Shown here piece after piece: positions 12,540-64,000 of a stretch of 64,000 nucleotides of DNA. The translations under genes were made by a program, and so were the position numbers. Source of the DNA: an uncultured Mollicutes bacterium (GTDB taxonomy: Bacteria; Bacillota_I; Bacilli_A; ML615J-28; CAG-313); assembly GCA_900538885.1 (NCBI GenBank), contig UQAI01000001.1:25862-89861 (forward strand), given 5' to 3'. The notes below the pieces were generated by a model that saw nothing but the letters and a program-made list of their open reading frames with translations, made no database searches and was not told the origin of the DNA. Numbering within the stretch: position 1 is the stretch's first letter; every line of letters starts with the position of its first letter.

Positions 12540-12552
12540 TATTAGTAGAATA

Positions 12553-12687: not shown

Positions 12688-12766
12688 CTTACACGATTAC
12701 ATCAAAGGGTGCTAAAAATTTTACACGATTTGAAGTAGGGGTGCTAACGGTTTACACGATTTGCTA
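12688..12766. repeat. about 2.5 tandem copies of a ~30-bp repeat (TTACACGATT-N8-GGGTGCTAAAAATT), repeat set A
   Basis: direct tandem repetition seen in sequence; same family at 62594-62680 and partial inverted copy at 22645-22670. Confidence 0.8.
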
Positions 12767-12850: not shown

Positions 12851-13042
12851 ATGGATTACGCATCTGCTATAAAGAAATTAAGAAATAAAATGATTCTTAC
12901 ACAGACTGAATTTGCAAAAGAACTCGGTGTTTCTTTTGGAGCTGTTAATAGATGGGAGTCAGGGAAATTTAAACCTACCACTAAAACGAAAAGAAAAATA
13001 GCTGAACTATTTAAGAAATACAATATAGAAGTGGAGGATTAA
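12851..13042 (+). CDS. XRE-family helix-turn-helix transcriptional regulator (possible controller of the R-M operon)
   Basis: HTH_3 pattern TQTEFAKELGVSFGAVNRWESG; start at ATG 12851 behind GGAGGG RBS. Confidence 0.6.
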   Translation: MDYASAIKKLRNKMILTQTEFAKELGVSFGAVNRWESGKFKPTTKTKRKIAELFKKYNIEVED

Positions 13043-13045
13043 TTT

Positions 13046-16213: not shown

Positions 16214-16225
16214 GGAGAGAAATAT

Positions 16226-17848
16226 ATGAATATTAAACAAAAAACAATTGACTTAATTGATGCATTGAAAGCCACTTGTCAAACATACGGAATGGGTAAT
16301 GATGGAAATGAATATAAAATTATTACACAAGTATTTTTGTATAAGTTTTTAAATGATAAATTTGGACATGAGATTAAAGAAAAGTCAGTAAAAATTGCTA
16401 AAGCAGCTAAATGGGAAGAAGAATATGAAAGCATGAGTAATGAAGAAAGGTTGGATTTATTTGATAAGCTTTCTCCTGATATTCCTCGATTATATCCTGA
16501 ACACCTTATATCGTTTTTATGGAATCAACAAAGTAAAGGTGAATTTGACTTAATTTTCGATAGCACAATGATAGATATAGCTGAGAAGAACATTGATATC
16601 TTCTCGACTATGACAGATGAAAAAACTAGAATTCCTTTATTTGAAAAATTAACCGTATTTGTTACTGATGAAGCTAAAAGAGCGCCATTTGCACGTGCTT
16701 TAGTTGATAAATTAGCAAACTTCTCTTTTGAAGAGGCGTTTTCAGAACACTATGACTTTTTTGCAACAATTTTTGAATATTTGATTAAGGATTACAATAC
16801 AGCAGGCGGTGGAAAGTATGCTGAATATTATACTCCACACTCAATTGCTACAATTATGGCTAGACTATTAGTTGGAGAAACTGATAATTTGCATGACATA
16901 GAAGTATATGATCCATCTGCTGGCACAGGAACATTATTGATGGCTCTTGCACATAAAGTTGGTGAAGATAAGTGCACCATTTATTCTCAAGACATTTCAC
17001 AAAGAAGTAATAAGATGTTGAAATTAAATTTAATATTAAATAATTTAGTTTCATCACTTGATCATGCTATTCAAGGTGATACTTTGGTTTCACCATTTCA
17101 TAAAAATGATGATGGCACTGAGTTAAAACAATTTGACTTTGTTGTTTCTAATCCACCATTCAATATGGATTTTTCTGACACCAGAGATATAATCGCAGCA
17201 AAGACAACTAGATTCTGGGCAGGCGTTCCAAATATTCCAAAGAAAAAACTTGATGGTATGCCAATATATACATGTTTTATACAACATGTTGTTAATTCTT
17301 TAAAGAAAACTGGAAAGGCAGCTATCGTTGTACCTACGGGTTTTTTATCATCTAAAAGTGGTGTTGAAGGTACCGTTTTATCAAAATTAGTGGAAGAGAA
17401 GATAGTATATGGATGTATAAGCATGCCTTCAAACGTTTTTGCTAACACCGGAACTAATGTGTCAGTTTTATTTTTAGATGGTTCTAAATCAAGTACAGAT
17501 GTTATGCTTATAGATGCTTCAAAATTAGGTGAAGAATATAAGGAAGGAAAGAATCAAAAGAGAAGATTAAGAGATTTTGAAATTAATCAGATAGTTGATT
17601 CATTTATTAATAAAGTATCAAATGACGGCTTTTCTATTAACGTTAGTTTGGATAAGGTAAAAGAAAAGAAAAATTCATTATCAGCTGGAATGTATTTTAA
17701 AGTCAAAACTGATAATCCAACTATATCTACCTCAAAATATAATGAAATCGTCTGTGATTATATTACAGCATTGGATGAATACAAGCTAAATGCAGATAAT
17801 TTTGTTGAGTGGGCGAAAGATAGTTTATTAAAGAAGAATGATAAATAG
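16226..17848 (+). CDS. hsdM: Type I restriction-modification N6-adenine DNA methyltransferase subunit (HsdM)
   Basis: HsdM N-terminal domain, SAM motif DPSAGTGTLL, catalytic NPPF motif (VVSNPPFNMDF). Confidence 0.9.
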   Translation: MNIKQKTIDLIDALKATCQTYGMGNDGNEYKIITQVFLYKFLNDKFGHEIKEKSVKIAKAAKWEEEYESMSNEERLDLFDKLSPDIPRLYPEHLISFLWNQQSKGEFDLIFDSTMIDIAEKNIDIFSTMTDEKTRIPLFEKLTVFVTDEAKRAPFARALVDKLANFSFEEAFSEHYDFFATIFEYLIKDYNTAGGGKYAEYYTPHSIATIMARLLVGETDNLHDIEVYDPSAGTGTLLMALAHKVGEDKCTIYSQDISQRSNKMLKLNLILNNLVSSLDHAIQGDTLVSPFHKNDDGTELKQFDFVVSNPPFNMDFSDTRDIIAAKTTRFWAGVPNIPKKKLDGMPIYTCFIQHVVNSLKKTGKAAIVVPTGFLSSKSGVEGTVLSKLVEEKIVYGCISMPSNVFANTGTNVSVLFLDGSKSSTDVMLIDASKLGEEYKEGKNQKRRLRDFEINQIVDSFINKVSNDGFSINVSLDKVKEKKNSLSAGMYFKVKTDNPTISTSKYNEIVCDYITALDEYKLNADNFVEWAKDSLLKKNDK

Positions 17849-17859
17849 GAGCTGTAAAT

Positions 17860-19116
17860 ATGAAACTAAGAAATATATGTAAAATAGTTACAGACTCAAT
17901 TAATCCAAAAAAACAAAAAAATAAGCTTTTCGAGCTATATAGTTTGCCCGCTTTCGATGATTTCAAAAGGCCTGAAAATGTATATGGCTCAGATATCGAG
18001 AGCAATAAGTATTTGGTTCCAGAAAAAACAATATTGTTTAATAAATTAAATGTTAGATTCAAACGTATATGGAGGATCACCAACAATAACCAGGATAATA
18101 AAATATGCTCAACTGAGTTTCTACCAATAATTGTTGATGAAAAAATAGCCGATTTTGATTATGTTTATTTTTTATTGATGTCAGATCAAGTCACAGAATA
18201 CTTATGTGCACCAACAACTAATACTTCTGGAAGTCATAAGAGAATAGATCCAGATTTTCTACTTGATATGGAAATATCCTTGCCTGAATTAGACGAGCAA
18301 GTTCGCGTTGCAAGAAAACTAAAAACGCTAGATGATGAGGTTCAGTGTTGTTTTGATTTTGAAACTAAATCATTTAAATTTTTAAAAGATACATATGATT
18401 ACTGGTTTGTTTCTTATAACTTTCCTAACAATAATGGTGATGCATATAGTGAAAATGGTGGAACATTTGTAGAGGACAAAGAAACAGGTATTAATTATCC
18501 AACAAAATGGAGTTTTAATAAGATCGGACAGTATTTTAATGTTGTGAGAGGTGTAAGTTATAAGCCTGAAGATACTTCGGAAATAGAAACCGATATTCAT
18601 ATGCCGTTATTAAGATCAAATAATATTTACGACGAGAGATTAATACATGAAGATATAGTGTTTGTTGATAAAAAAAGGGTAAGTGAAGAACAAATATTAC
18701 ATGCAAATGATGTGTTTATTTGTATGTCTAATGGCAGTAAAAATTTAATTGGTAAAAATACAATTATTCCATATGATACAGAATATGCCTTTGGAGCTTT
18801 TTGTGCTAAAATTAAGAATATAGATTGCGATTATTTAGGCTTTATAAACTTATTCTTTAAGAGTAATTATTATAAAGCTTATATCGCACAAATATGTGCA
18901 AACACTAGTATAAATAATATCGGAAATGAAATGTTAACTGACTTAAAATATCCATTACCTCCGCTAAATATCGCTAAAAAGTTTAATGAAATATATTTAA
19001 AAGTAATGTCTGAAGTCGGGAATGCGCATAAATTTATGTTATCGACAAGAACATTATTAGAAAAACATATATTTATGGACATGAATGGAGTACTCATAAA
19101 TAGTTCAGAAGATTAA
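17860..19116 (+). CDS. hsdS: Type I restriction-modification specificity subunit (HsdS), two target-recognition domains
   Basis: 418 aa, duplicated TRD/conserved-helix architecture, immediately downstream of hsdM. Confidence 0.85.
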   Translation: MKLRNICKIVTDSINPKKQKNKLFELYSLPAFDDFKRPENVYGSDIESNKYLVPEKTILFNKLNVRFKRIWRITNNNQDNKICSTEFLPIIVDEKIADFDYVYFLLMSDQVTEYLCAPTTNTSGSHKRIDPDFLLDMEISLPELDEQVRVARKLKTLDDEVQCCFDFETKSFKFLKDTYDYWFVSYNFPNNNGDAYSENGGTFVEDKETGINYPTKWSFNKIGQYFNVVRGVSYKPEDTSEIETDIHMPLLRSNNIYDERLIHEDIVFVDKKRVSEEQILHANDVFICMSNGSKNLIGKNTIIPYDTEYAFGAFCAKIKNIDCDYLGFINLFFKSNYYKAYIAQICANTSINNIGNEMLTDLKYPLPPLNIAKKFNEIYLKVMSEVGNAHKFMLSTRTLLEKHIFMDMNGVLINSSED

Positions 19117-19156
19117 AAAAGCGACTTAGCTCAATTACGAGTTAAGTCGCTATTTT

Positions 19157-19357
19157 TTATTCTGGAATATATTCCATTATATCTTTGAAGTCACAACTAA
19201 GTGTCTTGCAAATTTTGCAAAGCACATCAGTAGTTACATTTTGACCTTTGGTCATTTTAGCAATTGAAGAGGAACTAACACCAGAGAGCTTAATAAGCTC
19301 TTTTTTGTTTAGGTTCTTATCGATTAATAATTTCCATAATTTGTTATAACTTATCAT
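19157..19357 (-). CDS. XRE/Cro-family HTH protein, last gene of the minus-strand three-component operon
   Basis: 66 aa HTH_3 (ELIKLSGVSSSSIAKMTKGQNVTTDVLCKICKTL); 1-bp gap to upstream ATPase gene. Confidence 0.55.
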   Translation of the reverse strand: MISYNKLWKLLIDKNLNKKELIKLSGVSSSSIAKMTKGQNVTTDVLCKICKTLSCDFKDIMEYIPE

Positions 19358-19358
19358 T

Positions 19359-21188
19359 TTATGCTTTCCTTACATTCTTTAAGAAGCCGTATCTACCTTT
19401 GTTTTCTTTTTGAGTGAACTTGTAGATAACAACATCATCGTTAATTTCTAATTCAGGCAATTCGCTGTATTTTGTGTTTTCAATTATAACGATCTGGTCT
19501 GCTGTTTCAAGATTTATTAAATAATCAAAGAATCCTTTTCTAACGTTATCTGAATCCTCATCTTTATCTTCAGGAACTGATAATCCCTTAAGTGGTGAAT
19601 CTAAGAACCAGAAGCAGCCTTTGTTGGCACTTTTTTCTTCTATGTACTTCCTTAAAAGAAGAATAAGCATGGAGTTGGTGAACGCTTTATATCCTTTACC
19701 ACGTCTGATCTTATTCTTATTGTTAACTATTAAATCTAACTTGGTTTCAGTAAAGTCAATAGTACTGATATTTGGGTATTTAACGTCAGTAAAGATTTGA
19801 ACACCGTTATCAATTACATATTGACCTATGATTGAGAATAGAATTTTCTTTGCTTCAAATTTTAGTTTAGGTACATCATCACCTTTTTGGTATTTCTTTA
19901 AGTCTTCTTCAAGATCAACGTCATTTGCTCCTAGTTCATCAATCGCAGACTTAAGTCGAATATACTCTTCATAACTTTGAATTTTTTTCGCAAGTTCTGT
20001 TCTCTTAGGAGTAAGGACTTCATTGATTTTTGTTTTGTTGATTTCTATTGTTTCTTTATAGACAGCAATTAGATCCCCATCATCATCCAATGTATCTTTT
20101 AGCATTGCTGATGTCTCATCTAGTTCATTAAGATTGTTAACAACATTTCTTAGTTCGACTTTTGCAGCTTCGATATAAGAAGTAGGGTTTTTTGGAGTCA
20201 TTTCATGGTCACAGTAAGGGCATTTAGATTTTGTTGTCTTGTGGCCTATAGAGACTTCATTATTAACGATAAATGTTAATCTATTAATTTCCTTTTGATA
20301 GTCACTTTTTAATTCTTCATATTTAGAGAATATTAATTCATTTTTTTGTTGTTTCTTTTGAAGAGTCATTAAGTTAAATGATGTAGTGGTATTTTCAGAT
20401 GTTAAGCGTTCAATCTCATCGTTTAACTTTATAAGACTCTCATTTAGTTCTTGAATAACAGTTTCTAATGAAGCTAGGTCAATGCCTGATTGCTTTAGTT
20501 TATCTTCTAAAACTTCCTTCTTTTTAGACATAGCTATTCTATGTTCTGAAATGTAGGCGATTACTGCATTTCTTTTTGCTTTTTTGATTTCGTCAGATTC
20601 ATCTTTTTTTAGATAGTCTTCTAGCGTATTTCCAGTAAGGAAATATATTAATGCAGCAAGATATGTGGTCTCTCCATTTTGTTGAAGAAGTACGGATTTA
20701 GGCTTGTCAGCTTTATCTTCATCAATTAGGAATGTTTTTTTAATCGTTCTCCAAGAAAATCTTTCTGGATCGCCATCAATATTAGAAGGAATCTTAAGGT
20801 CATCCTTTAATCCTAATATCTTAAGCATCAATTTATCTATCGTTTTATTATTTTTTTTACCTTCCTTAAGAACATATTCGCCGCTTTCAATTTCAGGATT
20901 GTCACAAGAAACTGTGGTTTTAGAAGTGCCTTGTACTCTGGTTAGTGTGATGTCACCGTATTGAGTTTCAATTATTAGGGTGATGGTATCAAACCCATCT
21001 GACTCATCGAATGGAGCATGATCGTCATCGTTTTTAGCACCAAGTACATAATCAACGCATTTATAAATACAGGATTTACCAGTATCAGAAGGTCCAGCGA
21101 TAATGGTTAGTTTATTTCCGAATTCAATTTCTGATGGTTCAGCATTTGGTCCGGTAGCAATAAGCTTTTTAAGTTTAATAAAACCCAT
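19359..21188 (-). CDS. Rad50/SMC-like ABC ATPase with central coiled coil and CxxC zinc-hook (LmuB / ABC-3C ATPase-like)
   Basis: Walker A GPSDTGKS at N-terminus, ~250-aa heptad-rich coiled coil with CPYC at its midpoint, C-terminal Walker B/D-loop FWFLDSPLKGLS. Confidence 0.6.
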   Translation of the reverse strand: MGFIKLKKLIATGPNAEPSEIEFGNKLTIIAGPSDTGKSCIYKCVDYVLGAKNDDDHAPFDESDGFDTITLIIETQYGDITLTRVQGTSKTTVSCDNPEIESGEYVLKEGKKNNKTIDKLMLKILGLKDDLKIPSNIDGDPERFSWRTIKKTFLIDEDKADKPKSVLLQQNGETTYLAALIYFLTGNTLEDYLKKDESDEIKKAKRNAVIAYISEHRIAMSKKKEVLEDKLKQSGIDLASLETVIQELNESLIKLNDEIERLTSENTTTSFNLMTLQKKQQKNELIFSKYEELKSDYQKEINRLTFIVNNEVSIGHKTTKSKCPYCDHEMTPKNPTSYIEAAKVELRNVVNNLNELDETSAMLKDTLDDDGDLIAVYKETIEINKTKINEVLTPKRTELAKKIQSYEEYIRLKSAIDELGANDVDLEEDLKKYQKGDDVPKLKFEAKKILFSIIGQYVIDNGVQIFTDVKYPNISTIDFTETKLDLIVNNKNKIRRGKGYKAFTNSMLILLLRKYIEEKSANKGCFWFLDSPLKGLSVPEDKDEDSDNVRKGFFDYLINLETADQIVIIENTKYSELPELEINDDVVIYKFTQKENKGRYGFLKNVRKA

Positions 21189-21190
21189 AA

Positions 21191-21628
21191 TTATTTCTTA
21201 ACTCCTTTCGTTCTATCTTTTAATTTTTGTATCGTAATAGGCTTCATTTCATCTATGATGTTAGAAGCGAATTTTTTATATTCTATAGAGTAATCATCGT
21301 TCATTTCTGACACATATGCCTTACCAGAATCGGTAATTGCGTATATAAAACCTCTATCTGGATTGTTCGTTACAGTAGCAAGACCTCTGAATAATAGTTC
21401 TTTTAGCGAGTTCTTTATAAGCTTGCGCTGTATTGTGAACTCGTTAAGTGGAAATGAGCAGACACCGTTTAAGTTTGATTCACCAAATCCATAATGTTCA
21501 GCATATATGGCAAAGAAGTCCAGACGCGCTATTTCATCTTCGTTTAGATAACTTTGTTTATCTAAAATCATAAGAAGGCGCATAGAAACTTCAAATTCAG
21601 TATTAAAAAGCTTTGTCATTATAGCCAC
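21191..21628 (-). CDS. small alpha-helical middle component (LmuC-like) of the three-gene ATPase system
   Basis: 145 aa, overlaps upstream gene by 10 nt and sits 2 nt from ATPase gene; size and position match the middle component of ABC three-component systems. Confidence 0.4.
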   Translation of the reverse strand: MAIMTKLFNTEFEVSMRLLMILDKQSYLNEDEIARLDFFAIYAEHYGFGESNLNGVCSFPLNEFTIQRKLIKNSLKELLFRGLATVTNNPDRGFIYAITDSGKAYVSEMNDDYSIEYKKFASNIIDEMKPITIQKLKDRTKGVKK

Positions 21629-22581
21629 CTTACCTTTCCGTCATTAACAAGCATGTGGACCATGCCCATTTTCTCTTCAGTTCCTACCATACCATTGCCA
21701 GCAGTAGTGAAATAACTTTTTGAAAAGGTAATAACCATCACTTTATCCATTGTCTTATTTAATTTTTCATAAGCATCAGGAACCATTGAATTTGTATAAA
21801 GTCTTATTGCTTTATAAATCTCGTCTTTCATAGATGAAAATTCCTGTTCACCATCGTAGAAGAAATTTCTAACTTGTCTTAGCACCGTTTCAGCACTATA
21901 AAAGGCTTCACGATGTATTTGTAATTCCATTTGATAAACTGGATGACCATCCAAATCACCTATCGATGATATTGATTCACCAGTCTTTTGCGAGTAAACA
22001 GATAATAGTGCAGTTACATATTCACTTTCCATATCGTCGGGATTATCTGGGACAGTAAGTGCTGGTGGTAGAGTGTATTCAGTTCCACCAATTCTAACTT
22101 TATTGCCTGGAAGGAACACAGCTTTTTTAATAGATGTTTTTCTATTCTTCTCTGAACGCTCTTGAAGTAAATCTGCAAAGACATTAGCTAATTCTTCAGG
22201 TAAGTCAATACCTGCAAGAGTGACTCCTTTCTTAGCAAAGTTATCAATAAGTAAGCCTATGGCTTCATCAGTCAATTCAGCTGCATCATATACATCTTGA
22301 AAGTACTCTGATGTTATTTTACTTTTTAAATATCTGGCATCCTTAATTGGCATGTCGGTGTCATTTGTTTCATTAAGCAATTTTTCACAGTAGTTTTCAG
22401 ACTTCATTGTTATGTCATTAAGAATTTTATTATCGATTAATGAAATATCTGTAAACCAAGTTATTACATCTTGGTAAATAAGACGTGCACTTAATCTATG
22501 TGTTTCAGGATCGACTTGTATTTGGCTGGCAAATGCATTCTTAATTAAGTTTATAAACTCGTATATTTTCATTATTATCAC
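21619..22581 (-). CDS. first gene of the three-gene operon; candidate sensor/effector (LmuA-like position) with no recognisable catalytic motif
   Basis: 320 aa, translationally coupled to the next gene; no nuclease/TIR/Sir2/protease signature visible by eye. Confidence 0.4.
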   Translation of the reverse strand: MIIMKIYEFINLIKNAFASQIQVDPETHRLSARLIYQDVITWFTDISLIDNKILNDITMKSENYCEKLLNETNDTDMPIKDARYLKSKITSEYFQDVYDAAELTDEAIGLLIDNFAKKGVTLAGIDLPEELANVFADLLQERSEKNRKTSIKKAVFLPGNKVRIGGTEYTLPPALTVPDNPDDMESEYVTALLSVYSQKTGESISSIGDLDGHPVYQMELQIHREAFYSAETVLRQVRNFFYDGEQEFSSMKDEIYKAIRLYTNSMVPDAYEKLNKTMDKVMVITFSKSYFTTAGNGMVGTEEKMGMVHMLVNDGKVRWL

Positions 22582-54105: not shown

Positions 54106-56784
54106 ATGAAAAAAATTGGTAGATTTATTGTTTTATCTATTTTTATGATGTCAGTTATCTTTATGACTGGTTGTAGCAACAACACTCCTTATATTGGAGA
54201 AAATGGAAACTGGTGGGTTGGCGAGTCTGACACTGGGGTTCCGGCACAAGGTGAAAAAGGTGATAGTGGCGAAAAAGGTGACAAAGGAGATAAGGGTGAC
54301 AAAGGAGATAAAGGTGACACTGGGGATTCAGTAACTGTTGTTTCAGTTAAAAAAACAGGAACTGAAGAAAACGTCGATACATATACAATCACTTTCTCTG
54401 ATGGAAATACTTCAACATTTACTGTTACAAATGGTGCTGATGGCGAATCAGTTAATGTTGAATCAGTAACTAAGATTGGTTCTGATGGATTAGTTGATAC
54501 TTATAAAATAATGTTTTCTGATGGTACTGAATATACTTTTACAGTAACTAACGGAGCTGATGGCGAGTGCATAACAATTGAATCAATTGAAAAAACTGGT
54601 TCAGATGAATTAGTTGATACTTACACAATTACATTATCTGACGGAAACAAATTCACATTTACCGTTACTAATGGAAAAGACGGATTAACTCCTTATATTG
54701 GTCCTAATGGCAACTGGTGGATTGGCGATGAAGATACTGGCGAATTCGCTTCTTATAACTATGAAACTAGAGATATTACTGATGGATTAACATTTACACC
54801 TATGACCATAAATGGAAAAGGTGGTTTTGTTGTTACTGGTTTTGATCCTGTTGTTGCATACGGCAGTGAAATTTATAATCTTTTAGATAACTATCCAGAA
54901 CAATACGCGTCAACTTATGGAATTATTAATATTCCTGATTATTTAGGTACAACTCCTGTTATTGGAATCAAAGCTGAAATGTTTAAAAACGTTGATTATA
55001 TCGGCAAAGTTTCACTTTCAAGAAATACAGTTTATCTTGGAGATAATGTTTTTAATACTTGCTCAAATTTACAAGAAATTGATTTTAATGGAGCACCATT
55101 AGAAAAACTTCCAGACTATGCTTTTTATAAAACAAAACTTCAAAGCATTGATTTACCTGAAACTTTAGAAACTTTAGGTGCATATTCTCTTGCAAATACT
55201 AAATTAAAATCTATTGAATTACCAAATTCATTAACGAGATTAGAAAGTCATGCTTTATATGGAAATACTATAAAAGATATTGATATTAATAATGTTACTT
55301 ATTTTGCAGATTATTCATTATATGGAATTCATGGTAATCCTATTTATTTAACGAATGATGTTGAATATGTTGGTAGTTACGCTTTTGCTGGAACTTATGT
55401 TTATATCGAACAGGAAACAATCCCTACAACTTGGGAAAGCAATATTGCAGGTACTAGTACGTATTATGGTGGAATTGTTACTCCTAATTGTTTAATTAAT
55501 GATGAGTATATTTACTCTAAGAACGGAAATGAAATAACAGTATTAAATTATATAGGAACTGATAAACGAATTGAAATTCCTAGTTTAATTGATTCTCTAC
55601 CAGTTACAAAAATTGGATACGGTTTCAACTCTGTTAGTGAAATTGGACTTAATGTTTATGATAATATTTATACTGAAGAAAGTGGCGAAAACTATTTCAG
55701 TTATATGGTAAGAGCAGAACAAGTAGTAATTCCAAATTCAGTAAAAGCAATTGATTTAGGAGCATTCAATAATTTATTTACTACAATTTATATTCCTTCA
55801 AGCGTAGAAAAAATAAGCACTTATGCTTTAATCATTGACAATGATGACTTGTCATCAAACTTTATGATTTTTGAAGCTAATTCATATCCTACATTGATTA
55901 AAGGTTGGGTAGATGGCGAAAATGAAGGCGAAATTGATGGTGCACTATGGTTTGATGACGAAAACTATATTTGCTATTATCGCAATATCAAAAATACAAA
56001 ATGGGAAGATGTTTATTTTAATGAAGAAACAAATTCATACTATATTAAAGATTTATTTGGTTATACTTTAATTGCTTATATGAACCATGAAGTTGGTAGT
56101 AAAATTGTAATCGAATCAACTTTCAATAACGAAACTGTTCATACTATTAGAAAAGGTGCTGTTTATGGATTCTTTAATCCTAAATCCTTAATCATAGAAG
56201 ATGGAATTAAAAAGATTCAAAAGTATGCGTTTATGATGTGTGCAGACTTCAATTATGCTTATATTCCTAGCAGTGTAACAACAATTAATGCCTATGGATT
56301 TGCTGATGTTTGTTATAGATTCTATACAAATCACACATCAAAACCAGATGAATGGGATACACAATGGGCTGGTTCTTCATCTAGTTATACAATTACTTAT
56401 AAAACTGAATTAGGTGAGATTCCTACAATATCTTTTGATGGAAAGTATGAATATGCAGTTCTTGATGATGGAACAGTAAGTCTAGTTAAGTATTTGGGTT
56501 CTTCATCAACATCTACAATTAAAGTTCCAAGAACAATTGATGGATATACAGTAACTGAAGTAAAGAGCAATTGTTATTCAATTTCATACTCTTCTACAGT
56601 TTACATTTATATTCCTAAATCAATTCTTGTGTTAGAAGAAAATGCATTTTATCGCTCTTACACTTATTATACAACTTATGTTTATTTTGAAGCTGAATCT
56701 GCTTTACCTGGCTATCACTCAAAATTCACCAATACATCTTCTAGCTATTTAACTAAATACTGGAATAGAAGTATCGGATACTAA
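54106..56784 (+). CDS. surface lipoprotein with collagen-like GDK repeats, three tandem ~45-aa repeats and a BspA/internalin-type leucine-rich-repeat domain
   Basis: signal peptide plus lipobox [30 protein letters not shown], repeated TYTITFSDGN.TFTVTNGADGE units, C-terminal LRR periodicity. Confidence 0.7.
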   Translation: MKKIGRFIVLSIFMMSVIFMTGCSNNTPYIGENGNWWVGESDTGVPAQGEKGDSGEKGDKGDKGDKGDKGDTGDSVTVVSVKKTGTEENVDTYTITFSDGNTSTFTVTNGADGESVNVESVTKIGSDGLVDTYKIMFSDGTEYTFTVTNGADGECITIESIEKTGSDELVDTYTITLSDGNKFTFTVTNGKDGLTPYIGPNGNWWIGDEDTGEFASYNYETRDITDGLTFTPMTINGKGGFVVTGFDPVVAYGSEIYNLLDNYPEQYASTYGIINIPDYLGTTPVIGIKAEMFKNVDYIGKVSLSRNTVYLGDNVFNTCSNLQEIDFNGAPLEKLPDYAFYKTKLQSIDLPETLETLGAYSLANTKLKSIELPNSLTRLESHALYGNTIKDIDINNVTYFADYSLYGIHGNPIYLTNDVEYVGSYAFAGTYVYIEQETIPTTWESNIAGTSTYYGGIVTPNCLINDEYIYSKNGNEITVLNYIGTDKRIEIPSLIDSLPVTKIGYGFNSVSEIGLNVYDNIYTEESGENYFSYMVRAEQVVIPNSVKAIDLGAFNNLFTTIYIPSSVEKISTYALIIDNDDLSSNFMIFEANSYPTLIKGWVDGENEGEIDGALWFDDENYICYYRNIKNTKWEDVYFNEETNSYYIKDLFGYTLIAYMNHEVGSKIVIESTFNNETVHTIRKGAVYGFFNPKSLIIEDGIKKIQKYAFMMCADFNYAYIPSSVTTINAYGFADVCYRFYTNHTSKPDEWDTQWAGSSSSYTITYKTELGEIPTISFDGKYEYAVLDDGTVSLVKYLGSSSTSTIKVPRTIDGYTVTEVKSNCYSISYSSTVYIYIPKSILVLEENAFYRSYTYYTTYVYFEAESALPGYHSKFTNTSSSYLTKYWNRSIGY
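54376..54705 (+). repeat. three tandem ~135-bp intragenic repeats in the lipoprotein gene
   Basis: near-identical protein units; DNA periodicity visible. Confidence 0.7.
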
Positions 56785-57635: not shown

Positions 57636-57851
57636 ATGACTCCTTTGGAAAGATATATGGCTTCAGTTAAGGTTCTTGAGAAGATGGTTAAGGAAGGCTT
57701 GATTGATGAAAAAGAGTACATGAAAGTCGAATCGTTCCTAGCTAAAAAACACTGTATCAAACCTGACAGCATTTACCGTTCAAATCACTTGCTATTTCAG
57801 AGAAATAGAGTGATAGATAGTAATGCAAAAAAGGAGGCAAATAATGGATAG
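57636..57851 (+). CDS. small protein with SHOCT-like C-terminal motif
   Basis: 72 aa; GLIDEKEYMKVESFLAKK resembles the SHOCT motif. Confidence 0.3.
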   Translation: MTPLERYMASVKVLEKMVKEGLIDEKEYMKVESFLAKKHCIKPDSIYRSNHLLFQRNRVIDSNAKKEANNG

Positions 57852-59187
57852 AAACATAATCAAAATTGATGCAGAAAAGCAATTGAAATCCAGAATTAGG
57901 GTTTGCGCTTATGCTCGTGTTTCAAGAGATAAGGATGCGATGTTTCAATCGCTGTCAGCTCAGGTTAGCCATTACAACAAGATGATTAACAGCAACCCAG
58001 AATGGCAGTTCAAGGGAGTCTATGCGGATTATGCATTTTCAGGAACAAAGGAAGATAGACCGGAATTCCAAAAGATGCTGGAAGCCTGCAAAGCTGGTGA
58101 GATTGATTTAATTATCACAAAATCAATTTCAAGGTTCGCCAGAAACACAGAAACAGTGCTTAAAGTAGTTAGGGAATTAAAGGCTAGGGATGTAGATGTT
58201 TACTTCGAGGAACAAAAGATCCATACGATATCATCGGATGGTGAGTTCATGCTTAGCGTGCTTGCTGCTTATTACCAAGAGGAAGCCAGGTCGGTTTCAG
58301 AAAATATGAAATGGCGAATTAAGAAAGATTTCAGTCAAGGCATCATGTGGGGTGGCAAAGATAACTACGGTTACAAATATGACATCGATAAGAAGACGTT
58401 CATTGTAGTTCCTGAAGAGGCTGCTGTAGTTAAGCGAATCTTCGAACTATACATTGCTGGAGCAGGATTTCAAAAGATATCCAGCATCCTGAACTTGGAA
58501 GGCATAAAACCAATGACTGCAAATGAGTGGAGCAAGAATAACGTGACAGCCGTCATAAGCAACTCAAACTACACAGGCGACCTAATCCTTCAGAAGACAT
58601 ACCGCAAGGATTACCTATCAAAGAAAAAATGCAAGAACAACGGTGAGCTTCAGAAATACCTTGTCGAAGAGAACCATGAGCCAATAATCACTAAAGAGAT
58701 GTTTGAAAAGGCACAGAAAATCAGAAATGAGAGAATTATGAAGTATGACATTAAAACCAGAAAGGCAAAGAATAACTACCCTTTCACAGGCATTCTTAGA
58801 TGCGGATGCTGCGGTGGAGCATATCATCACAAGACGACAAGGTACAACTTAATCTGGATTTGCAGAACCTACAACACCAAAGGGAAAGGCTTCTGCTCAA
58901 GAAGCAAGCAAATAGATGAACGCAAGCTTTATGATGCGATTAACCAATACTTCGGTTGGGATAAGTTCAAACAAGATAAGTTCCTAGAGAAGGTTGAGAA
59001 GATTATAGCTAATCCAGGGAATGAGCTAGAGATTCACCTTAAGGATGGAACGGTTGACAAAATCTATTGGAATGACAGAAGCCGAAGCGAGGCATGGACT
59101 GATGATATGAAATCTAAAGCTAGAGCTAAGGCATTTAAACAAAACGAATTAAGAGGAGGGAACAACAGATGGCAAAAGTCAAAGTAA
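57844..59187 (+). CDS. large serine recombinase (CcrA-like size)
   Basis: N-terminal resolvase domain with catalytic-serine region VCAYARVSRD, recombinase domain, C-terminal Cys-rich zinc ribbon; about 448 aa. Confidence 0.8.
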   Translation: MDRNIIKIDAEKQLKSRIRVCAYARVSRDKDAMFQSLSAQVSHYNKMINSNPEWQFKGVYADYAFSGTKEDRPEFQKMLEACKAGEIDLIITKSISRFARNTETVLKVVRELKARDVDVYFEEQKIHTISSDGEFMLSVLAAYYQEEARSVSENMKWRIKKDFSQGIMWGGKDNYGYKYDIDKKTFIVVPEEAAVVKRIFELYIAGAGFQKISSILNLEGIKPMTANEWSKNNVTAVISNSNYTGDLILQKTYRKDYLSKKKCKNNGELQKYLVEENHEPIITKEMFEKAQKIRNERIMKYDIKTRKAKNNYPFTGILRCGCCGGAYHHKTTRYNLIWICRTYNTKGKGFCSRSKQIDERKLYDAINQYFGWDKFKQDKFLEKVEKIIANPGNELEIHLKDGTVDKIYWNDRSRSEAWTDDMKSKARAKAFKQNELRGGNNRWQKSK

Positions 59188-60740
59188 TACCACAAACGAT
59201 AAATCCGATGACAATGTCAGTTATTGGCTCAACTCAAAAAAGAAAAGTTGCTGCTTATGCCAGAGTAAGCACCGAGAATGAAGAACAACAATCATCATAT
59301 GAAGCACAGGTCAAATACTACACTGAGCATATAGCAACCAGACCAGACTGGGAATTCGTGAAGGTGTATTCTGATGAAGGTATATCAGGAACCAACACAA
59401 AAAGAAGAGTTGGCTTTAGATCGATGATACAGGATGCAGTTGATGGGAAGATTGACCTAATTCTAACCAAATCAATATCGAGATTTGCCAGAAACACCTT
59501 AGACAGCATATCCTACATTAGACAATTGAAAGCTGCTGGAACTGAGGTCTATTTTGAAAAGGAAAATTTATGGACATTCGATTCAAAGTCTGAAATGGTG
59601 CTGTCTATGCTTAGTGCTATTGCTCAAGAGGAAAGCCGAAGCATCTCAGAGAACGTTAAGATGGGCAAGAGATGGCAAATGAAGGAAGGAAAGGTTACAA
59701 TTCCTTGTAAGGCGTTCTTAGGATACCAAAATATAGATGGTAAGATTACGATTGATAAGGATGAGGCAATCATCGTTAGAAGAATTTACTCAATGTTCTT
59801 AAAGGACGGTATGACAAGAAAGGCTATAGCAGATACTCTGAAGGCTGAGGGAATTCCTACTCCATCAAAGAAAGGCTGCAACTGGACCGTCAACAACATT
59901 CAGTCGATACTCACCAACGAGAAGTACAAAGGCGATGCATTGCTACAAAAGGTCTATTGCGACGATTATCTTGAGCACAAGGTAAAGAAGAACAACGGTG
60001 TGTTACCTCAATATTACGTTGAGAATTCGCATCCTGGAATCATCAACAAAGAAGAATGGACAATGGTTCAGGAGGAGCTTAAGAGAAGAGAAGGCATCAG
60101 ATACTCATACCAAACAAGCAATCCTTATTTAGCAAAGCTTAGATGCTCGGAATGCGGACACTTCTTCGGAATCAAGGTATGGCATTCCAACTCAATCCAC
60201 AGAAAAGAGGTATTGCAATGCAACGGCAAATACAAATGCGGATGCAAGTCACCTAATCTTAGCCAAGATGAAGTCAACAGGAAGTTCATAGAAGCCTACA
60301 ACCAAGTGATGGACAACAAGAAAGGCTTGATAGAAGACACCAAAGAGGTCATAGAAATGCTAACCTCAACTGAGAAAATAGACGCGAAGGTACAAGCATT
60401 AACGAATGAGATGGAGGAGGTTCAGCTATTGGTAGAGAACCTAATTCACGACAATGCCAGAAGGAACCAAGACCAAGAAGAGTACGAAAGACACTATCAA
60501 GAGTTGGTAAGTCAATTCAATGCAGCTAAAGCTAAAATGAAATCCTTGCTAGAGGAAAAACAATCCAAACTAGACAGGATTGAAATACTTAATGCTTTCA
60601 TTGTTTCCTTAGAAGATAAAGAAGCCGTCATAGATGAATTCTCAACTGATCTATGGAACTTAATGATTCAAGATGCATTAGTCAGCGAGGATGGAACAAT
60701 TAAGTTTGTATTCAAGAATGGAACAGAAATTACAATGTAA
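59169..60740 (+). CDS. large serine recombinase (CcrB-like size), overlapping the upstream recombinase gene by 19 nt
   Basis: AAYARVSTENEEQQSS catalytic region, recombinase domain, zinc ribbon CSECG...C, C-terminal coiled coil; 523 aa. Confidence 0.8.
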   Translation: MAKVKVIPQTINPMTMSVIGSTQKRKVAAYARVSTENEEQQSSYEAQVKYYTEHIATRPDWEFVKVYSDEGISGTNTKRRVGFRSMIQDAVDGKIDLILTKSISRFARNTLDSISYIRQLKAAGTEVYFEKENLWTFDSKSEMVLSMLSAIAQEESRSISENVKMGKRWQMKEGKVTIPCKAFLGYQNIDGKITIDKDEAIIVRRIYSMFLKDGMTRKAIADTLKAEGIPTPSKKGCNWTVNNIQSILTNEKYKGDALLQKVYCDDYLEHKVKKNNGVLPQYYVENSHPGIINKEEWTMVQEELKRREGIRYSYQTSNPYLAKLRCSECGHFFGIKVWHSNSIHRKEVLQCNGKYKCGCKSPNLSQDEVNRKFIEAYNQVMDNKKGLIEDTKEVIEMLTSTEKIDAKVQALTNEMEEVQLLVENLIHDNARRNQDQEEYERHYQELVSQFNAAKAKMKSLLEEKQSKLDRIEILNAFIVSLEDKEAVIDEFSTDLWNLMIQDALVSEDGTIKFVFKNGTEITM

Positions 60741-60745
60741 AAAAT

Positions 60746-60780
60746 AAAACCAGCCGCTTTATAAAATGGCTGGTTTTTTA
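60746..60780 (+). terminator. rho-independent terminator (ccagcc...ggctgg + T6) after the recombinase pair
   Basis: seen in sequence. Confidence 0.7.
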
Positions 60781-60787
60781 GTGCTAT

Positions 60788-60830
60788 ATCGTTAACATTT
60801 TATTAACGATGTGATATACTATTAACGATA
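60788..60830 (+). promoter_or_regulatory. promoter (TTAACA-17-TGaTATACT) overlapped by a perfect inverted repeat ATCGTTAA-N7-TTAACGAT plus a third TTAACGAT half-site; operator-like
   Basis: palindrome and hexamers seen directly upstream of the SymE-like gene. Confidence 0.45.
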
Positions 60831-60848
60831 TCCGGAGGACGTTAATAA

Positions 60849-61109
60849 ATGAATAGAAAGCTTAAAGTCTATGAACAATCTATGGGTGGGGGAAACTACA
60901 CTCAAGTTCCAACGATTTTATTAAAGGGAAAGTGGCTTGAAGAAGCTGGGTTTAAAGCCGGCGAGTACGTTGAGGTTGTTTGCGATGGTGACAAGATTAT
61001 TCTTACGAAAACTAGTGCACCAGAGCCAAGAAAGTCACTCGAAGATAGAATCAAGAATTTAAGCGAAAGTCAAAAAAAGAAACTGTCTGAGATGATTGAT
61101 AAATTATAG
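60849..61109 (+). CDS. SymE-like (AbrB/SpoVT-fold) toxin-family protein
   Basis: LKGKWLEEAGFKAGEYVEVVCDGDKIILTK matches the SymE core motif L.G.WL..AGF..G..V.V. Confidence 0.5.
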   Translation: MNRKLKVYEQSMGGGNYTQVPTILLKGKWLEEAGFKAGEYVEVVCDGDKIILTKTSAPEPRKSLEDRIKNLSESQKKKLSEMIDKL

Positions 61110-61123
61110 AAGGGAGTCCAAAT

Positions 61124-62095
61124 ATGAGCCAAAAAGAAGAAATTTTAAGACTTCTAAAAGAAAATAATTCAATGACTCAAGGTGACCTATCTATTGCAAT
61201 TTATGGTGATAATAAGCATATGCCAAATATCTACGGTGCTTTAATGTCACTTGTTGACGCTGGAGTTGTTGTAAGAACTGGTTCGCAGCCTTCTTATTAT
61301 TCATTAAGTGGTGTTGAACCTGCAATTCAAGTGCAAGAAGAAGCAAATATTAATGTACATCCAAAAATTAAATATGGTAGTCAATTACAACTTGACAATG
61401 TTCTTAATTCATTAGTTACTCGAAATAATATAGAAATGGATAGAACGAATAACCTTGTTAAATTAACAAAGTCTAATTCGAGAATTATTGAAGATTTAAT
61501 TAGAAATGATTATGGATATATTCCTTTTGCCAATATGATTTACAAACAATTATGCAGTGAAAATAGTGGCTCTTTTCCAAATACTACATATGCATGGTCT
61601 GCTTTGGTTAGAATAATTGACCTTGATAACTCCACCCAAGTTTGGAGATTCCATAGACCAGATTTTCATAAAATCATAGATTATATTGTTGATCCTTCTA
61701 ATAACTTCATCGATAGATTGTCACGAGGTGATGTGTCTCTAGTGGATGAGATTAAGAATAGTATGCAACCAGTCGATATCAAGAGTCTTCCAAGTAAGAT
61801 TTGTAAATATACATCAGAGTACATGAACTTCGGTGACAATTATTTTATAAATGATTATTACGTTAGAAGCATGCTTCCTTTTTACTTGGATTATTATCAT
61901 GTTGATTGTAGCAATATTTGTATTAGGAGTTGTTTTGAAACGAAGACACATAGAGAAGCATTGCCTTATCAAGTATTGTTCGATTTATTAGATGCTTTAT
62001 TAGTAAAAATTAATGAAACAGAGCAAGAACCACTAACTAAAAATGAGTTGGATCATATTATATGGTATTGCTATAAAAGTTACAGTAGGGATTAG
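61124..62095 (+). CDS. hypothetical protein with N-terminal winged-helix-like domain; first gene of an AT-rich two-gene cassette
   Basis: 323 aa; N-terminal LRLLKENNSMTQGDLSIAIYG...LVDAGVVVR wHTH-like; remainder unrecognised. Confidence 0.35.
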   Translation: MSQKEEILRLLKENNSMTQGDLSIAIYGDNKHMPNIYGALMSLVDAGVVVRTGSQPSYYSLSGVEPAIQVQEEANINVHPKIKYGSQLQLDNVLNSLVTRNNIEMDRTNNLVKLTKSNSRIIEDLIRNDYGYIPFANMIYKQLCSENSGSFPNTTYAWSALVRIIDLDNSTQVWRFHRPDFHKIIDYIVDPSNNFIDRLSRGDVSLVDEIKNSMQPVDIKSLPSKICKYTSEYMNFGDNYFINDYYVRSMLPFYLDYYHVDCSNICIRSCFETKTHREALPYQVLFDLLDALLVKINETEQEPLTKNELDHIIWYCYKSYSRD

Positions 62096-62593
62096 GTGAT
62101 TGCTATGGCTAATATGAATAATGAACAAAAATTAATAAATGATTTACTTAAAAAAAATGCAAGTTTATCACCTGCACCATTAAAAATATTGTCATCATGT
62201 GTAGCGGCTAAGAAAAATTGTGATGTGGAATTCACAGGAACAATTCCTGGTATGCTTGTTCAAAATCAATTTTGTTTGGAGGCTAAATCTGATAAAGCTA
62301 CTAATAAAAGTAATAATGTACTGCTTATCTTCGGTGATATATTAAAAGATAGAAAACTAAATGGATTGTCCAATGTTTCTTATGGTGCGTTGTTAGAGTA
62401 CCACTCATCTCAAGGAATGAAGAGTTTTTTTATAGATCAAATTCAAAAATACATCGATTCTGTTGACTGGGATAATTTTGGTTCAACTTATGGATGCGAT
62501 TATATTTTCTTCTATGACGATTCAACACATGAGTTATTCTATTCAGAATGGACAGGCTTCGTTACTGCAAAATCAATAAAAAAGTGGTTCTAG
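62096..62593 (+). CDS. hypothetical protein, second gene of the cassette
   Basis: 165 aa, starts at the stop of the upstream gene (coupled); no motif recognised. Confidence 0.3.
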   Translation: MIAMANMNNEQKLINDLLKKNASLSPAPLKILSSCVAAKKNCDVEFTGTIPGMLVQNQFCLEAKSDKATNKSNNVLLIFGDILKDRKLNGLSNVSYGALLEYHSSQGMKSFFIDQIQKYIDSVDWDNFGSTYGCDYIFFYDDSTHELFYSEWTGFVTAKSIKKWF

Positions 62594-62680
62594 GGGTGCT
62601 AAAAGTTGACACGATTTGAAGCAAGGGTGCTAAAAATTTTACACGATTTAAAAGTAGGGGTGCTAAAATTGTATTAAAAC
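62594..62680. repeat. about 2.5 tandem copies of the ~30-bp GGGGTGCTAAAA-TTGACACGATTTGAAG repeat (set C)
   Basis: same family and orientation as 12688-12766. Confidence 0.8.
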
Positions 62681-62708
62681 ATTTCTACTTTGACATAAGA
62701 AAAGCAAA

Positions 62709-62731
62709 GGTTTGATACAAGTATCAAGCCC
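62709..62731. mobile_element. attR-like duplicate of the tRNA-Leu terminator hairpin (GGTTTGATACAAGTATCAAGCCC), right boundary of the ~50-kb accessory segment
   Basis: 22/24 identity to 12553-12576; flanks diverge on both sides. Confidence 0.55.
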
Positions 62732-62793
62732 GTTAGGGATAAAATTCCCGTATAAAAATAGCGTAGTTACAAACAGGTTAATTCCTGAATGTG

Positions 62794-64000
62794 CTACGCT
62801 TTTTCATTTGGCAAGTCGACTTTGCCGATACCATTATAGAAGATATCGATTCTCATTTGTCTATGGCCATCAACTTTCTCAGCCTTATGAACGATAACCT
62901 TCTCTATGAATTCTCGTGCTATTTCATGAGTAAGCTCATCAATTCTTGTGTATTTTTGGACTAGTTCCATGAAATGGGAAGTAGATGCTGTTTGCTCATT
63001 AATGGCTTTGATTTTGCCTTCTAACTCAGCAATCTTTTCTTTTAGAGAAGTTTGCTCCTGCTCATAATTCTCATTCATCTTTTTGAATCTATCTTCAGAG
63101 ACAATACCTGATATTTTATCCTCATAAAGGTTTTGGATGATTGAATCAAGTTTCTCGATTCTGGCTTTTGATGCGTTTAGCTCCTTATTGAGAAGATTAA
63201 GTGATTTCGTGATATTCGCTGTCGACTCACTGGACACAAGCTTTATGAATTCATCCTCGTGTTCCTTTGCAAACTCAATATGACGCTTGATATCTTCAAG
63301 GACGATTTCATCGATAATCTTAATTCTTATTTGATGAGCTGAGCACAATCCTTGTCTCTTACGGTAAGTAGAACAACAATAATAATATGATTCTGGTTGA
63401 AGTGATTTAGTTCTGCAAACATATAGTTTCTTGCCACAGTCCGCACAATATATCATTCCAGATAGAACAGGCATTTCACCCATTGGTGTATTAGCCCTTT
63501 TTCTACCTTCCTTTAGCCTTTGCACTATGTCAAATGTCTCTTGATCGATAATAGCTTCATGAGTGTCCTTGATAATTACCCATTTTGAAGGTGGGTTAAT
63601 AAAGGACTTTTTGTTTTTGTAGGACTTTCTGCCAGTTTTGAAATTAACCGTATGGCCTAAGTATTCTTGCCTTGATAGGATATCTGAAACGACTGACCAA
63701 TCCCACCAATAAGGGTCTATGTTGTCCTTGCTATGGGTGTTAGGTATTCCTTTAGCATTCTTGTAAGAAGTAACATTAAGCACCTTTCTATCAGTTAAGA
63801 TTGTCGCAATCTTAGATGGCCCATTTCCTTGTACTGCTAAGCGGAATATCTCTTTAACAACCTCGGCAGCCTCTTCATCGATAAGCCAGTTGTATTTGTT
63901 GTTAGGGTCTTTCTTATAGCCGAACACTGGAATAGGAGCGGTAGGTTTTCCTGAATCACTCTTAGCTTTGATAACGGCTCTAATCTTCTTTGAGGTATCT
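62794..64000 (-). CDS. large serine recombinase, N-terminal part beyond window edge
   Basis: recombinase domain plus zinc-ribbon (CADCGKK...C) and C-terminal coiled coil; reading frame remains open to position 64000. Confidence 0.8.
   Translation of the reverse strand, partial: DTSKKIRAVIKAKSDSGKPTAPIPVFGYKKDPNNKYNWLIDEEAAEVVKEIFRLAVQGNGPSKIATILTDRKVLNVTSYKNAKGIPNTHSKDNIDPYWWDWSVVSDILSRQEYLGHTVNFKTGRKSYKNKKSFINPPSKWVIIKDTHEAIIDQETFDIVQRLKEGRKRANTPMGEMPVLSGMIYCADCGKKLYVCRTKSLQPESYYYCCSTYRKRQGLCSAHQIRIKIIDEIVLEDIKRHIEFAKEHEDEFIKLVSSESTANITKSLNLLNKELNASKARIEKLDSIIQNLYEDKISGIVSEDRFKKMNENYEQEQTSLKEKIAELEGKIKAINEQTASTSHFMELVQKYTRIDELTHEIAREFIEKVIVHKAEKVDGHRQMRIDIFYNGIGKVDLPNEKA

Follow-up and report, generated by a model that had tools for sequence, protein, structure and literature searches.

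A two-gene cassette, made up of open reading frames (ORFs) A and B, occupies positions 61124-62593 of a 64,000-nucleotide stretch of DNA from an uncultured Mollicutes bacterium (contig UQAI01000001.1, positions 25,862-89,861; hereafter the window). From the analyses described below we regard this cassette as an uncharacterised variant of nuclease-based defence cargo, with ORF A as its more interesting half. In the full reading, to which we assign a probability of roughly 0.4, the cassette is nuclease-based exclusion or defence cargo borne by a prophage, in which B would act as the effector and A as a sensor or regulator. Context, in the form of guilt by association together with a predicted nuclease, makes the cassette probably defence cargo.

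Both genes lie on the plus strand and were present as the original prediction, made from the sequence alone, had described them (61124-62095, 323 aa; 62096-62593, 165 aa). ORF A starts with an ATG preceded at 7 nt by the ribosome-binding site AAGGGAG. ORF B encodes 165 aa from the GTG at 62096 or 162 aa from an ATG at 62105 (62105-62593); the ATG was the preferred start because GGTGA can be read in the sequence 5 nt upstream of it, and independent gene calls on identical or related contigs gave 165 aa once and 162 aa twice.

Predicted products of ORF B and ORF A

Neither ORF A nor ORF B matched any model of Pfam, NCBIfam or PADLOC (PADLOC-DB v2.0.0), in agreement with the unknown function noted in the original prediction, and the SymE-like protein encoded immediately upstream of ORF A had no match in PADLOC either. 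The ORF B family is rare and consists of proteins of about 160 aa. A word-indexed search of 5.8 billion proteins returned six relatives, and an exhaustive profile search of 1.84 billion cluster representatives returned 57, nearly all of them stand-alone proteins of 145-180 aa. One locus was found in JGI metagenomes and none in IMG/VR. Among 35 family members E7, E59, K61 and F125 were invariant, W149 was nearly invariant and D40 was kept in at least 90%.

The best of five AlphaFold2 models of ORF B, on which the fold call rests, had a predicted local distance difference test score (pLDDT) of 80.9 and a predicted TM-score (pTM) of 0.80. It comprised a helix (residues 6-20), three strands (26-31, 41-46 and 53-61), a second helix (72-81) and a fourth strand (91-99), with D40 opening the second strand and E59-x-K61 carried by the third. 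Although none was significant, many of the Foldseek matches to this model were restriction-fold nucleases, including PaqCI, FokI (TMq 0.46), BsmI and the SPARDA nuclease domain as well as RecU/PrfA, I-Ssp6803I and 3ijm. The residue positions and the predicted alpha-beta-beta-beta-alpha-beta order of elements fit a PD-(D/E)XK arrangement, with the aspartate on strand 2, the (D/E)-x-K motif on strand 3 and the glutamate in the first helix. The earlier statement that no catalytic motif could be recognised by eye thus fails for ORF B, which carries the canonical E...D...ExK signature. Single members of the family gave weak Pfam matches to DUF6602, HSDR_N and TnsA_N, the last two of which are PD-(D/E)XK-type domains. 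Nothing was found by a PDB profile search with the B family, and ORF B had no significant match to any curated family model of the PD-(D/E)XK clan. Taken together, the model and the conserved residues make it likely that ORF B is a small stand-alone PD-(D/E)XK nuclease. No methyltransferase domain was found in A or B with Pfam, which leaves the pair without the cognate methylase of a restriction-modification system.

The AlphaFold2 model of ORF A (mean pLDDT 89.3) showed a winged helix joined through a disordered linker to an all-alpha domain with some 12 helices. The winged helix (aa 1-61; 61124-61306, plus strand) had the secondary structure H-b-H-H-b-b, a three-helix bundle with a beta-hairpin wing, and Foldseek matched it to winged-helix proteins throughout (MarR, Fur, PadR and Z-alpha among them) with a probability of 1.0, target-normalised TM-scores up to 0.85 and, for the tighter matches, root-mean-square deviations (rmsd) of 1.7-2.7 Å over about 62-69 columns. 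The winged-helix-like N-terminus proposed originally was therefore borne out. Scores for this region from sequence models were weak (Pfam TrmB, 0.014; PADLOC Csa3, E = 0.024), and a PHROG scan of A gave a weak Ren-like match alone, over the winged helix. By rmsd and TM-score the nearest structural neighbours were the Z-alpha domains 1qbj, 2acj and 3f22 (rmsd 1.7-1.9 Å, 23-26% identity); poxvirus E3L-type proteins were among the BFVD matches, and aa 1-61 are slightly acidic. The Asn and Tyr that contact Z-DNA, placed by a hand alignment, were not conserved in the winged helix of A, and no claim of Z-DNA binding is made.

The C-terminal domain of A (aa 92-317; 61397-62074, plus strand), about 230 aa long and all-alpha, was confidently modelled. 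It had no structural match in PDB or BFVD, where Foldseek with A returned winged-helix matches solely, and PDB profile and sequence searches with A were empty. The domain is a distant relative of Pfam PF27257 (HI_0787_N). ORF A did not match that family model above its threshold, and the relationship is indicated by homology and shared conserved residues: phmmer aligned 98% of A with relatives of the PF27257 type (E-values from 1e-27 to 1e-18), which have all invariant residues in common with A. In the precomputed Pfam annotation A and its relatives of at least 53% identity carried no assignment, and the relatives of 29-34% identity carried PF27257. The domain of A is about 40 residues longer than that of the PF27257 type, the extra residues being inserted near aa 105-130 and 258-280. 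When a profile built from the C-terminal domain was searched, it retrieved 832 clusters, every named one of which was a 'hypothetical protein'. HI_0787 and PF27257 were not mentioned in the literature searched, and to our knowledge no function has been assigned to this family.

The relatives of A fell into three groups. The first holds close relatives of 323 aa together with versions of 250-260 aa that have no winged helix. The second consists of proteins of about 276 aa that carry PF27257 and a very similar winged helix and are 29-34% identical to A over its full length. The third comprises 497-aa proteins (P0015, P0022) that join this winged helix to a PDDEXK_4 nuclease. Locus L021 and plasmids of Enterococcus faecium have other N-terminal domains, or a separate helix-turn-helix (HTH) gene, in place of the winged helix. 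Across differing contexts the winged helix was better conserved than the C-terminal domain of A.

Fourteen columns of the domain did not vary among members of the A type, of the PF27257 type, from phages and from plasmids (Y132, D166, N169, T171, S221, K225, C227, Y229, D244, L251, Y254, D310, H311 and W314). Such mostly polar or aromatic residues form the pattern of an active site or ligand pocket, and no known motif fits them. A helix-hairpin-helix (HhH-GPD) glycosylase, considered on account of the 19-residue spacing of K225 and D244, found no support from Pfam, NCBIfam, PDB profiles or Foldseek. In the Ruminococcus phage NatCom_3870 a 269-aa gene of the A family with all invariant residues (L070, 4893-5702) lies directly upstream of terL, as does an A-family gene in NatCom_28775; both are Heliusvirales phages. 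These two loci prompted the idea that A might be a small terminase subunit and raise a link to DNA packaging as a question.

Partners of A-family genes

The neighbourhoods of A-family genes were compared at 40 loci from species-representative genomes and at metagenome, plasmid and viral loci, immediate neighbours being those on the same strand with gaps of 1-63 bp. A-family genes abutted at least eight unrelated families of nuclease, among them PD-T4-3/CMoRE, UzuA, PDC-S26 and PDC-S48-like proteins. A PDDEXK_4 protein identified by PADLOC as PDC-S26 adjoined the A-type gene of L011 (3e-122); Pfam PDDEXK_4 proteins occurred at L012 and L020, with homologues clustered by BLAST at L023, L046 and L051. 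A LEM-3-type GIY-YIG protein corresponding to PD-T4-3/CMoRE was found at L024 (1.6e-55), with BLAST-clustered homologues at L025, L027 and L045, all from Mollicutes or Bacilli. Other A-type genes lay beside a GmrSD_N-HNH protein that matched the type II restriction endonuclease model REase_II (L030, 5e-131) and a DUF2779/Cas4-like protein (L018), and an SMEK_N/REase protein was encoded three genes downstream at L009.

In megaplasmids of E. faecium, a trio flanked by insertion sequences consisted of an XRE-type HTH gene (73-76 aa), an A-like protein (280 aa) and a 600-aa DEDDh exonuclease that is PDC-S48-like and has a C-terminal homing-endonuclease-like region. The trio was present in all three plasmids inspected (L069, L073 and L074), with the exonuclease gene truncated in L069; 98 plasmid records had an A-like match. 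Further neighbours of A-family genes included GmrSD, an Eco57I-type methylase, nSTAND3, AAA_15/21 and RES proteins. A nuclease, either assigned or clustered by BLAST, was directly adjacent in 10 of the 40 genome loci; many of the remainder were on truncated contigs or in housekeeping contexts. Genes for AAA_14/DUF4143 ATPases stood a few kilobases from A-type genes at three loci that otherwise differed from one another (L003, 6511-7818; L005, 10955-12226; L006, 4987-7774).

PD-T4-3/CMoRE (GIY-YIG), UzuA and the PADLOC candidates PDC-S26 (PDDEXK_4) and PDC-S48 (DEDDh) are, like ORF B, single nuclease genes in defence hotspots of mobile elements, and elsewhere they occupy the position of B directly beside an A-family gene. 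B differs in being much smaller (162 aa) and in having no separate sensing domain, and it has no sequence similarity to them by PADLOC, Pfam or profile comparison.

A and B are not an obligate pair; their distribution points to partner-independent modules. The pair recurred at L003 and L004 (A 86% and B 78% identical) in a non-phage chromosomal setting. At L005 the gene after an 82%-identical A encodes a GIY-YIG protein of 282 aa that matches UzuA (2e-43), and DNA homology between the window and this locus was limited to ORF A (61124-62099, 81.5%). Relatives of B with 53-64% identity stood among housekeeping genes with no A-like ORF nearby (L015, L057-L061 and L062); at L071 and L072, where B was about 40% identical, the flanks were too short to judge the presence of A. 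In total, B occurred without A in at least three distinct lineages having enough flanking sequence.

This separability argues strongly against a cognate toxin-antitoxin pair, the addiction alternative of the original prediction, in which B would be a nuclease toxin and A a winged-helix antitoxin and autorepressor that stabilises the prophage. The arrangement itself would suit such a module: a DNA-binding protein precedes a predicted nuclease, the two are tightly coupled and they are carried by a mobile element. In the type IV toxin-antitoxin system AbiEi/AbiEii, a gene encoding a winged helix and a C-terminal domain likewise comes first and the effector gene second, so that A resembles AbiEi in architecture. 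A and B nevertheless have no homology to that system, the predicted effector is a nuclease and not a nucleotidyltransferase, and the co-occurrence and co-variation of A and B are not strict. A single antitoxin family would also have to neutralise at least eight unrelated nuclease folds, and no conserved operator was seen. With B found alone and an 82%-identical A found beside an unrelated GIY-YIG nuclease, we consider a toxin-antitoxin module improbable.

The exchange of nucleases beside A also bears on whether these nucleases, B included, are selfish homing-type endonucleases that insert beside A genes, with A as landing site or hitch-hiker and no part in defence. GIY-YIG, HNH and PD-(D/E)XK are the classical folds of homing endonucleases, homing-endonuclease models of PADLOC matched the partner proteins of L005 and E. 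faecium, and the recombination junctions coincide exactly with the borders of ORF A. On the other side, A-family loci lie in defence islands with restriction-modification, GmrSD and nSTAND genes, and the relatives of B occur in unrelated chromosomal contexts with no A-like target nearby. Uzume, to which UzuA belongs, is counted among the experimentally described defence systems. Experiments have established PD-T4-3/CMoRE as a modification-dependent defence nuclease that protects cells from phage (PMC12923530, PMC12366544); CMoRE belongs to the proven type IV enzymes (PMC12923530). Homing of the nucleases therefore seems a poor explanation, ahead of the toxin-antitoxin module by little.

The main rival to a linked defence function is that A and B are independent cargo genes that share a hotspot and a transcript, B being a restriction-like nuclease and A an effector enzyme on nucleic acid that is brought to DNA by its winged helix and might represent a new fold of glycosylase, nuclease or modifying enzyme. 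The occurrence of B relatives without A, and of A without a nuclease at many loci, is what independent genes would show. The fusion of the winged helix to a PDC-S26-like nuclease in P0015 and P0022 resembles the use of a targeting domain. At L021 and in the E. faecium plasmids the winged helix is replaced, the 14 invariant residues resemble an active site, and no conserved operator was seen. Set against this are the very tight spacing between A-family genes and nucleases at many unrelated loci, which suggests functional coupling, and the lack of any known enzyme fold or motif in A among Foldseek searches of PDB and BFVD and PDB profiles, with the glycosylase idea unsupported. We judge independent genes to be the less likely account, at perhaps one chance in several, and the most serious of those competing with nuclease-based defence cargo.

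A candidate cargo hotspot in a putative prophage

The cassette follows two genes for large serine recombinases on the plus strand, of 454 aa (57823-59187; Pfam Resolvase 1.7e-29, Recombinase 4e-26, Zn_ribbon_recom 3.9e-11) and 523 aa (59169-60740; Resolvase 7.1e-33, Recombinase 1.8e-23). It is followed in turn by a repeat block, R (62591-62700, plus strand), in which three copies of TAGGGGTGCTAAAA(..TTACACGATTT) are spaced at 31-33 bp. The location between the recombination module (57823-60740) and the terminal repeats, proposed originally, was thus upheld, and cargo was found to be exchanged at the same place in related elements.

The comparison with locus L013 was the closest. The window from 59899 to 61306, covering the end of the second recombinase gene, the SymE-like gene and the winged helix of A, was about 96% identical to L013; the identity of the winged-helix flank (95.7%) ended at 61306 and so the winged helix also forms the conserved left flank of the variable cassette. 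The repeat block (62591-62703), its conserved right flank, was likewise about 96% identical. Between these flanks L013 (8001-10884) has three genes where the window has the C-terminal domain of A and B: one for a 497-aa protein in which the same winged-helix HTH domain precedes a PDC-S26-like nuclease, one for a 282-aa GIY-YIG protein resembling UzuA, and an ORF of 169 aa. This last ORF looked like a uracil-DNA glycosylase by eye but had no match in Pfam, PADLOC or PDB. L013 has no counterpart of window positions 33411-59899 and looks like a deletion derivative or satellite-like element. In L063 (IMG/VR) the repeat block recurred at 93% after other cargo, namely a helicase, a ClpB-like ATPase (PDC-M37B/DolB-like), a radical-SAM protein, an RNase III-like protein and two proteins of 726 and 372 aa with no Pfam match. 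In L075 and L076 (IMG/VR) a gene encoding a winged helix and HI_0787_N directly followed the recombinase pair at the end of the contig. Since related elements share the flanks and carry differing genes between them, homologues of defence genes included, the cassette lies in a genuine cargo hotspot between the serine recombinases and the terminal repeats.

A search with repeat R gave six matches, compared with 0.87 expected by chance. A second copy of the block lies at 12690-12765 (plus strand), where 44 nt are 95% identical to 62623-66. It falls within the element, close to the candidate left end, and precedes genes for an XRE-type HTH protein and a type I restriction-modification system. Elsewhere the block (GGGTGCTAAAA..TTACACGATTT) was found in L013 (10882-10993), L003 (about 9450-9552) and L063 (6984-7089). 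The repeats are thus found inside both element ends and around unrelated cargo in other elements; they may be iterons, or binding sites for a regulator or for an accessory factor of recombination. The repeat region had no match in Rfam, where sub-threshold matches fell solely at the recombinase terminator, and its RNA folding z-score was -1.64.

Homology to all related elements ended at about 62697-62703. An imperfect palindrome of 22 nt, GGTTTGATACAAGTATCAAGCC (62708-62730), lies beyond the point at which homology stops and is the candidate core of the right attachment site. A near-identical palindrome, GGTTTGATACAATGTTATCAAGCC (12552-12576), directly follows tRNA-Leu(GAG) (12454-12539) and is the candidate core of the left site. 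The 13-nt identity of the palindrome with 12552-12564 is by itself not significant (E = 1.2), and the assignment is suggestive because of the position of the palindromes and not because of identity alone. On this reading the region would be a prophage of about 50 kb, integrated beside tRNA-Leu by the large serine recombinases, with an XRE-type HTH gene, a type I restriction-modification system and an ABC-3C system in its left arm and the recombinases and the A/B cassette in its right arm.

In the left arm, between tRNA-Leu and the phage genes, a defence island (12851-22581) comprises the XRE-type HTH gene (12851-13042), a complete type I restriction-modification system separate from A and B (HsdR 13046-16213, HsdM 16226-17848, HsdS 17860-19116) and, on the minus strand, a three-gene ABC-3C system with MC2 and CTD6 domains (19359-22581). 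Between the phage structural genes and the recombination module, an 892-aa protein (54106-56784) combines an N-terminus like that of a lipoprotein with a collagen-like GD(K/T) repeat and leucine-rich repeats of the BspA type (LRR_5, 2.9e-41), and may have an accessory role at the surface or in adhesion. On its right the prophage abuts an integrative conjugative element (from 62794 to the end of the window at 64000 and further; L001 11671-16878), with a DUF4368-type serine recombinase gene on the minus strand followed by DUF6017, DUF3801, VirD4/TraG and Maff2. The 94-kb human gut metagenome contig ERZ914598 was identical to the window over the 4 kb compared (60001-64000), and the DNA of the cassette had no match among 50,697 GenBank phages.

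The position of the cassette raises the further alternative that A, with or without B, is a recombination accessory, such as a directionality factor or an excision regulator that perhaps acts on the terminal repeats. In four contigs of phage type (the window, L013, L075 and L076) a gene with this winged helix does come directly after the recombinase pair at the contig end, and repeat blocks flank both candidate ends of the element. A serine recombinase was, however, found within 6 kb of an A-family gene at none of the 40 genome loci, and the copies on E. faecium plasmids and the loci at which A accompanies a nuclease have no recombinases. L013 has a nuclease where A has its C-terminal domain, and the cargo flanked by the repeats of L063 is unrelated. 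We therefore hold a recombination function to be the least probable of the explanations considered.

Within the hotspot, A and B appear to be the second and third genes of a three-gene operon with its own predicted promoter. The first gene (60849-61109, plus strand) encodes an 86-aa protein of the SymE/AbrB fold (Pfam SymE_toxin, 7.7e-11; NCBIfam SymE, 9e-11, under the curated cut-off). A hairpin, CCAGCC...GGCTGG, followed by a TTTTTT run was read from the sequence 3' of the second recombinase gene (about 60746-60782). Between this hairpin and the SymE-like gene, among TTAACGAT repeats, lies a site that resembles a promoter (TTAACA-17-TATACT, extended TG; 60792-60820, plus strand); a consensus scan gave 10 of 12 matches, a measure of consensus likeness and not proof of function. 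The SymE-like stop codon is separated from the start of ORF A by 14 nt, and the stop of ORF A from the start of ORF B by 0-9 nt. The hairpin and T-run, the promoter-like site, these short gaps and the ribosome-binding sites together support the predicted operon. The translational coupling of A and B proposed originally was sustained in part: the gap of 0-9 nt fits co-transcription, and coupling is possible. In the related viral contigs L064-L067 the SymE-like gene accompanies the pair of large serine recombinases. Because it moves with them, it seems to belong to the recombination or lysogeny backbone of the phage and to be neither cargo nor, although no antisense RNA was sought, part of a type I toxin-antitoxin system.

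The lower GC content of the cassette had been noted as a distinguishing feature. The contrast with the recombinases is genuine (0.309 for A and B compared with 0.401 and 0.394 for the two genes) but says little, and as evidence of foreign origin it fails. The window has a mean GC content of 0.347 (standard deviation 0.039), 20% of 1470-bp windows are at or below the value of the cassette, and both the left flank, presumed to be host DNA (0.301), and the type I restriction-modification genes (0.31) are equally AT-rich. The cassette is not an outlier.

Proposed role of the cassette

The analysis shows the two ORFs and their arrangement in an operon, the folds predicted for their products, the catalytic residues of B, the flanks of the hotspot and the genes that accompany the A family. 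From these we infer that the cassette is expressed in the lysogen, that B acts as a nuclease, that the function is anti-phage and, for A, the whole of its role, as follows. The SymE-A-B operon would be expressed in the lysogen from its own promoter. ORF B would be the effector, a minimal stand-alone PD-(D/E)XK DNA endonuclease, and ORF A a partner-independent module and not the cognate antitoxin of B. The winged helix may tether A to nucleic acid, and its all-alpha domain, with the pocket-like invariant residues, may sense a nucleic-acid or nucleotide cue of invasion such as foreign, modified or damaged DNA. A would then license the adjacent nuclease, either transcriptionally or on DNA, and the prophage would thereby shield its host from superinfecting phages or other mobile DNA.

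We favour, by analogy, a role for A as a generic sensor or regulator of nuclease defence that corresponds in function to BrxR/CapW. These regulators combine a winged helix with WYL and WCX domains and co-localise with diverse defence systems (PMC9122601, PMC11662680). Like them, A has an N-terminal winged helix and a ligand-type domain, adjoins many unrelated defence genes and is partner-independent. Unlike them, A has no WYL or WCX domain by Pfam or PADLOC, its C-terminal domain being an all-alpha relative of HI_0787_N; no conserved operator was seen for the A family, and some of its members have no winged helix. A comparable logic is found in the two-component type IV restriction systems McrBC and GmrSD and in the controller (C) proteins of restriction-modification systems, where a reader component or a small regulator of the HTH type works alongside nucleases whose folds can be exchanged. 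The A family shares with these the placing of a DNA-binding component beside nucleases of differing folds, but A contains neither a GTPase nor a DUF262 or methyltransferase domain, its own domain is not a known reader of modification, and it is not associated with any C-box-like operator that could be found.

Four features of the family argue against action of A through one particular protein partner or an operator specific to the locus: the partner is swapped at 82% identity, no operator is shared, the winged helix is conserved better than the C-terminal domain, and in a sister cassette it is fused to a nuclease. The invariant pocket in turn suggests ligand sensing or catalysis.

A number of results weigh against this account of the cassette. 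The other four of the five AlphaFold2 models of B were poor (pLDDT 42-49). Foldseek with the best model returned nothing at E < 1e-3, and a profile-profile comparison of the B family with PDDEXK_4 gave no signal (probability 0.4%). The A family is rare in IMG/VR (two loci), many HI_0787_N genes stand among housekeeping genes, and adjacency within a defence island can arise without functional coupling. With regard to A as a transcription factor in particular, no shared operator was seen by eye upstream of 26 A-family genes, several members of the family have no winged helix, and in P0015 and P0022 the winged helix is fused directly to a nuclease.

The proposal of defence cargo made in the original prediction therefore survives in part. 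The context is defence-like, and the notion of a dedicated, co-evolving two-gene system is contradicted by B relatives of 41-64% identity that stand alone and by the swapped partner of A. A broader interpretation, which we hold more tentatively than the role proposed for this cassette, is that the A family is an unrecognised and widespread partner-independent component of nuclease immunity in Bacillota (Clostridia, Bacilli and Mollicutes) and candidate phyla, and that B is a new minimal restriction-type nuclease. A would then be either a sensor or regulator that licenses at least eight unrelated stand-alone defence nucleases or a new enzyme fold that acts on foreign DNA.

Should A and B prove to be ordinary, the cassette would be one more uncharacterised accessory operon of a prophage. 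Its hotspot, which in serine-recombinase prophages of gut Clostridia has conserved terminal repeats along one side, could be a source of further systems. Single nucleases, PD-T4-3/CMoRE, Uzume and the PDC-S candidates among them, make up many of the newly found defence genes, and how they are controlled and avoid damage to their own host is poorly understood. The A family is absent from PADLOC v2 and would be missed by annotation with it. As a family with no structural relative in PDB or BFVD that lies beside eight unrelated families of nuclease, it is a candidate for a general module of control or sensing.

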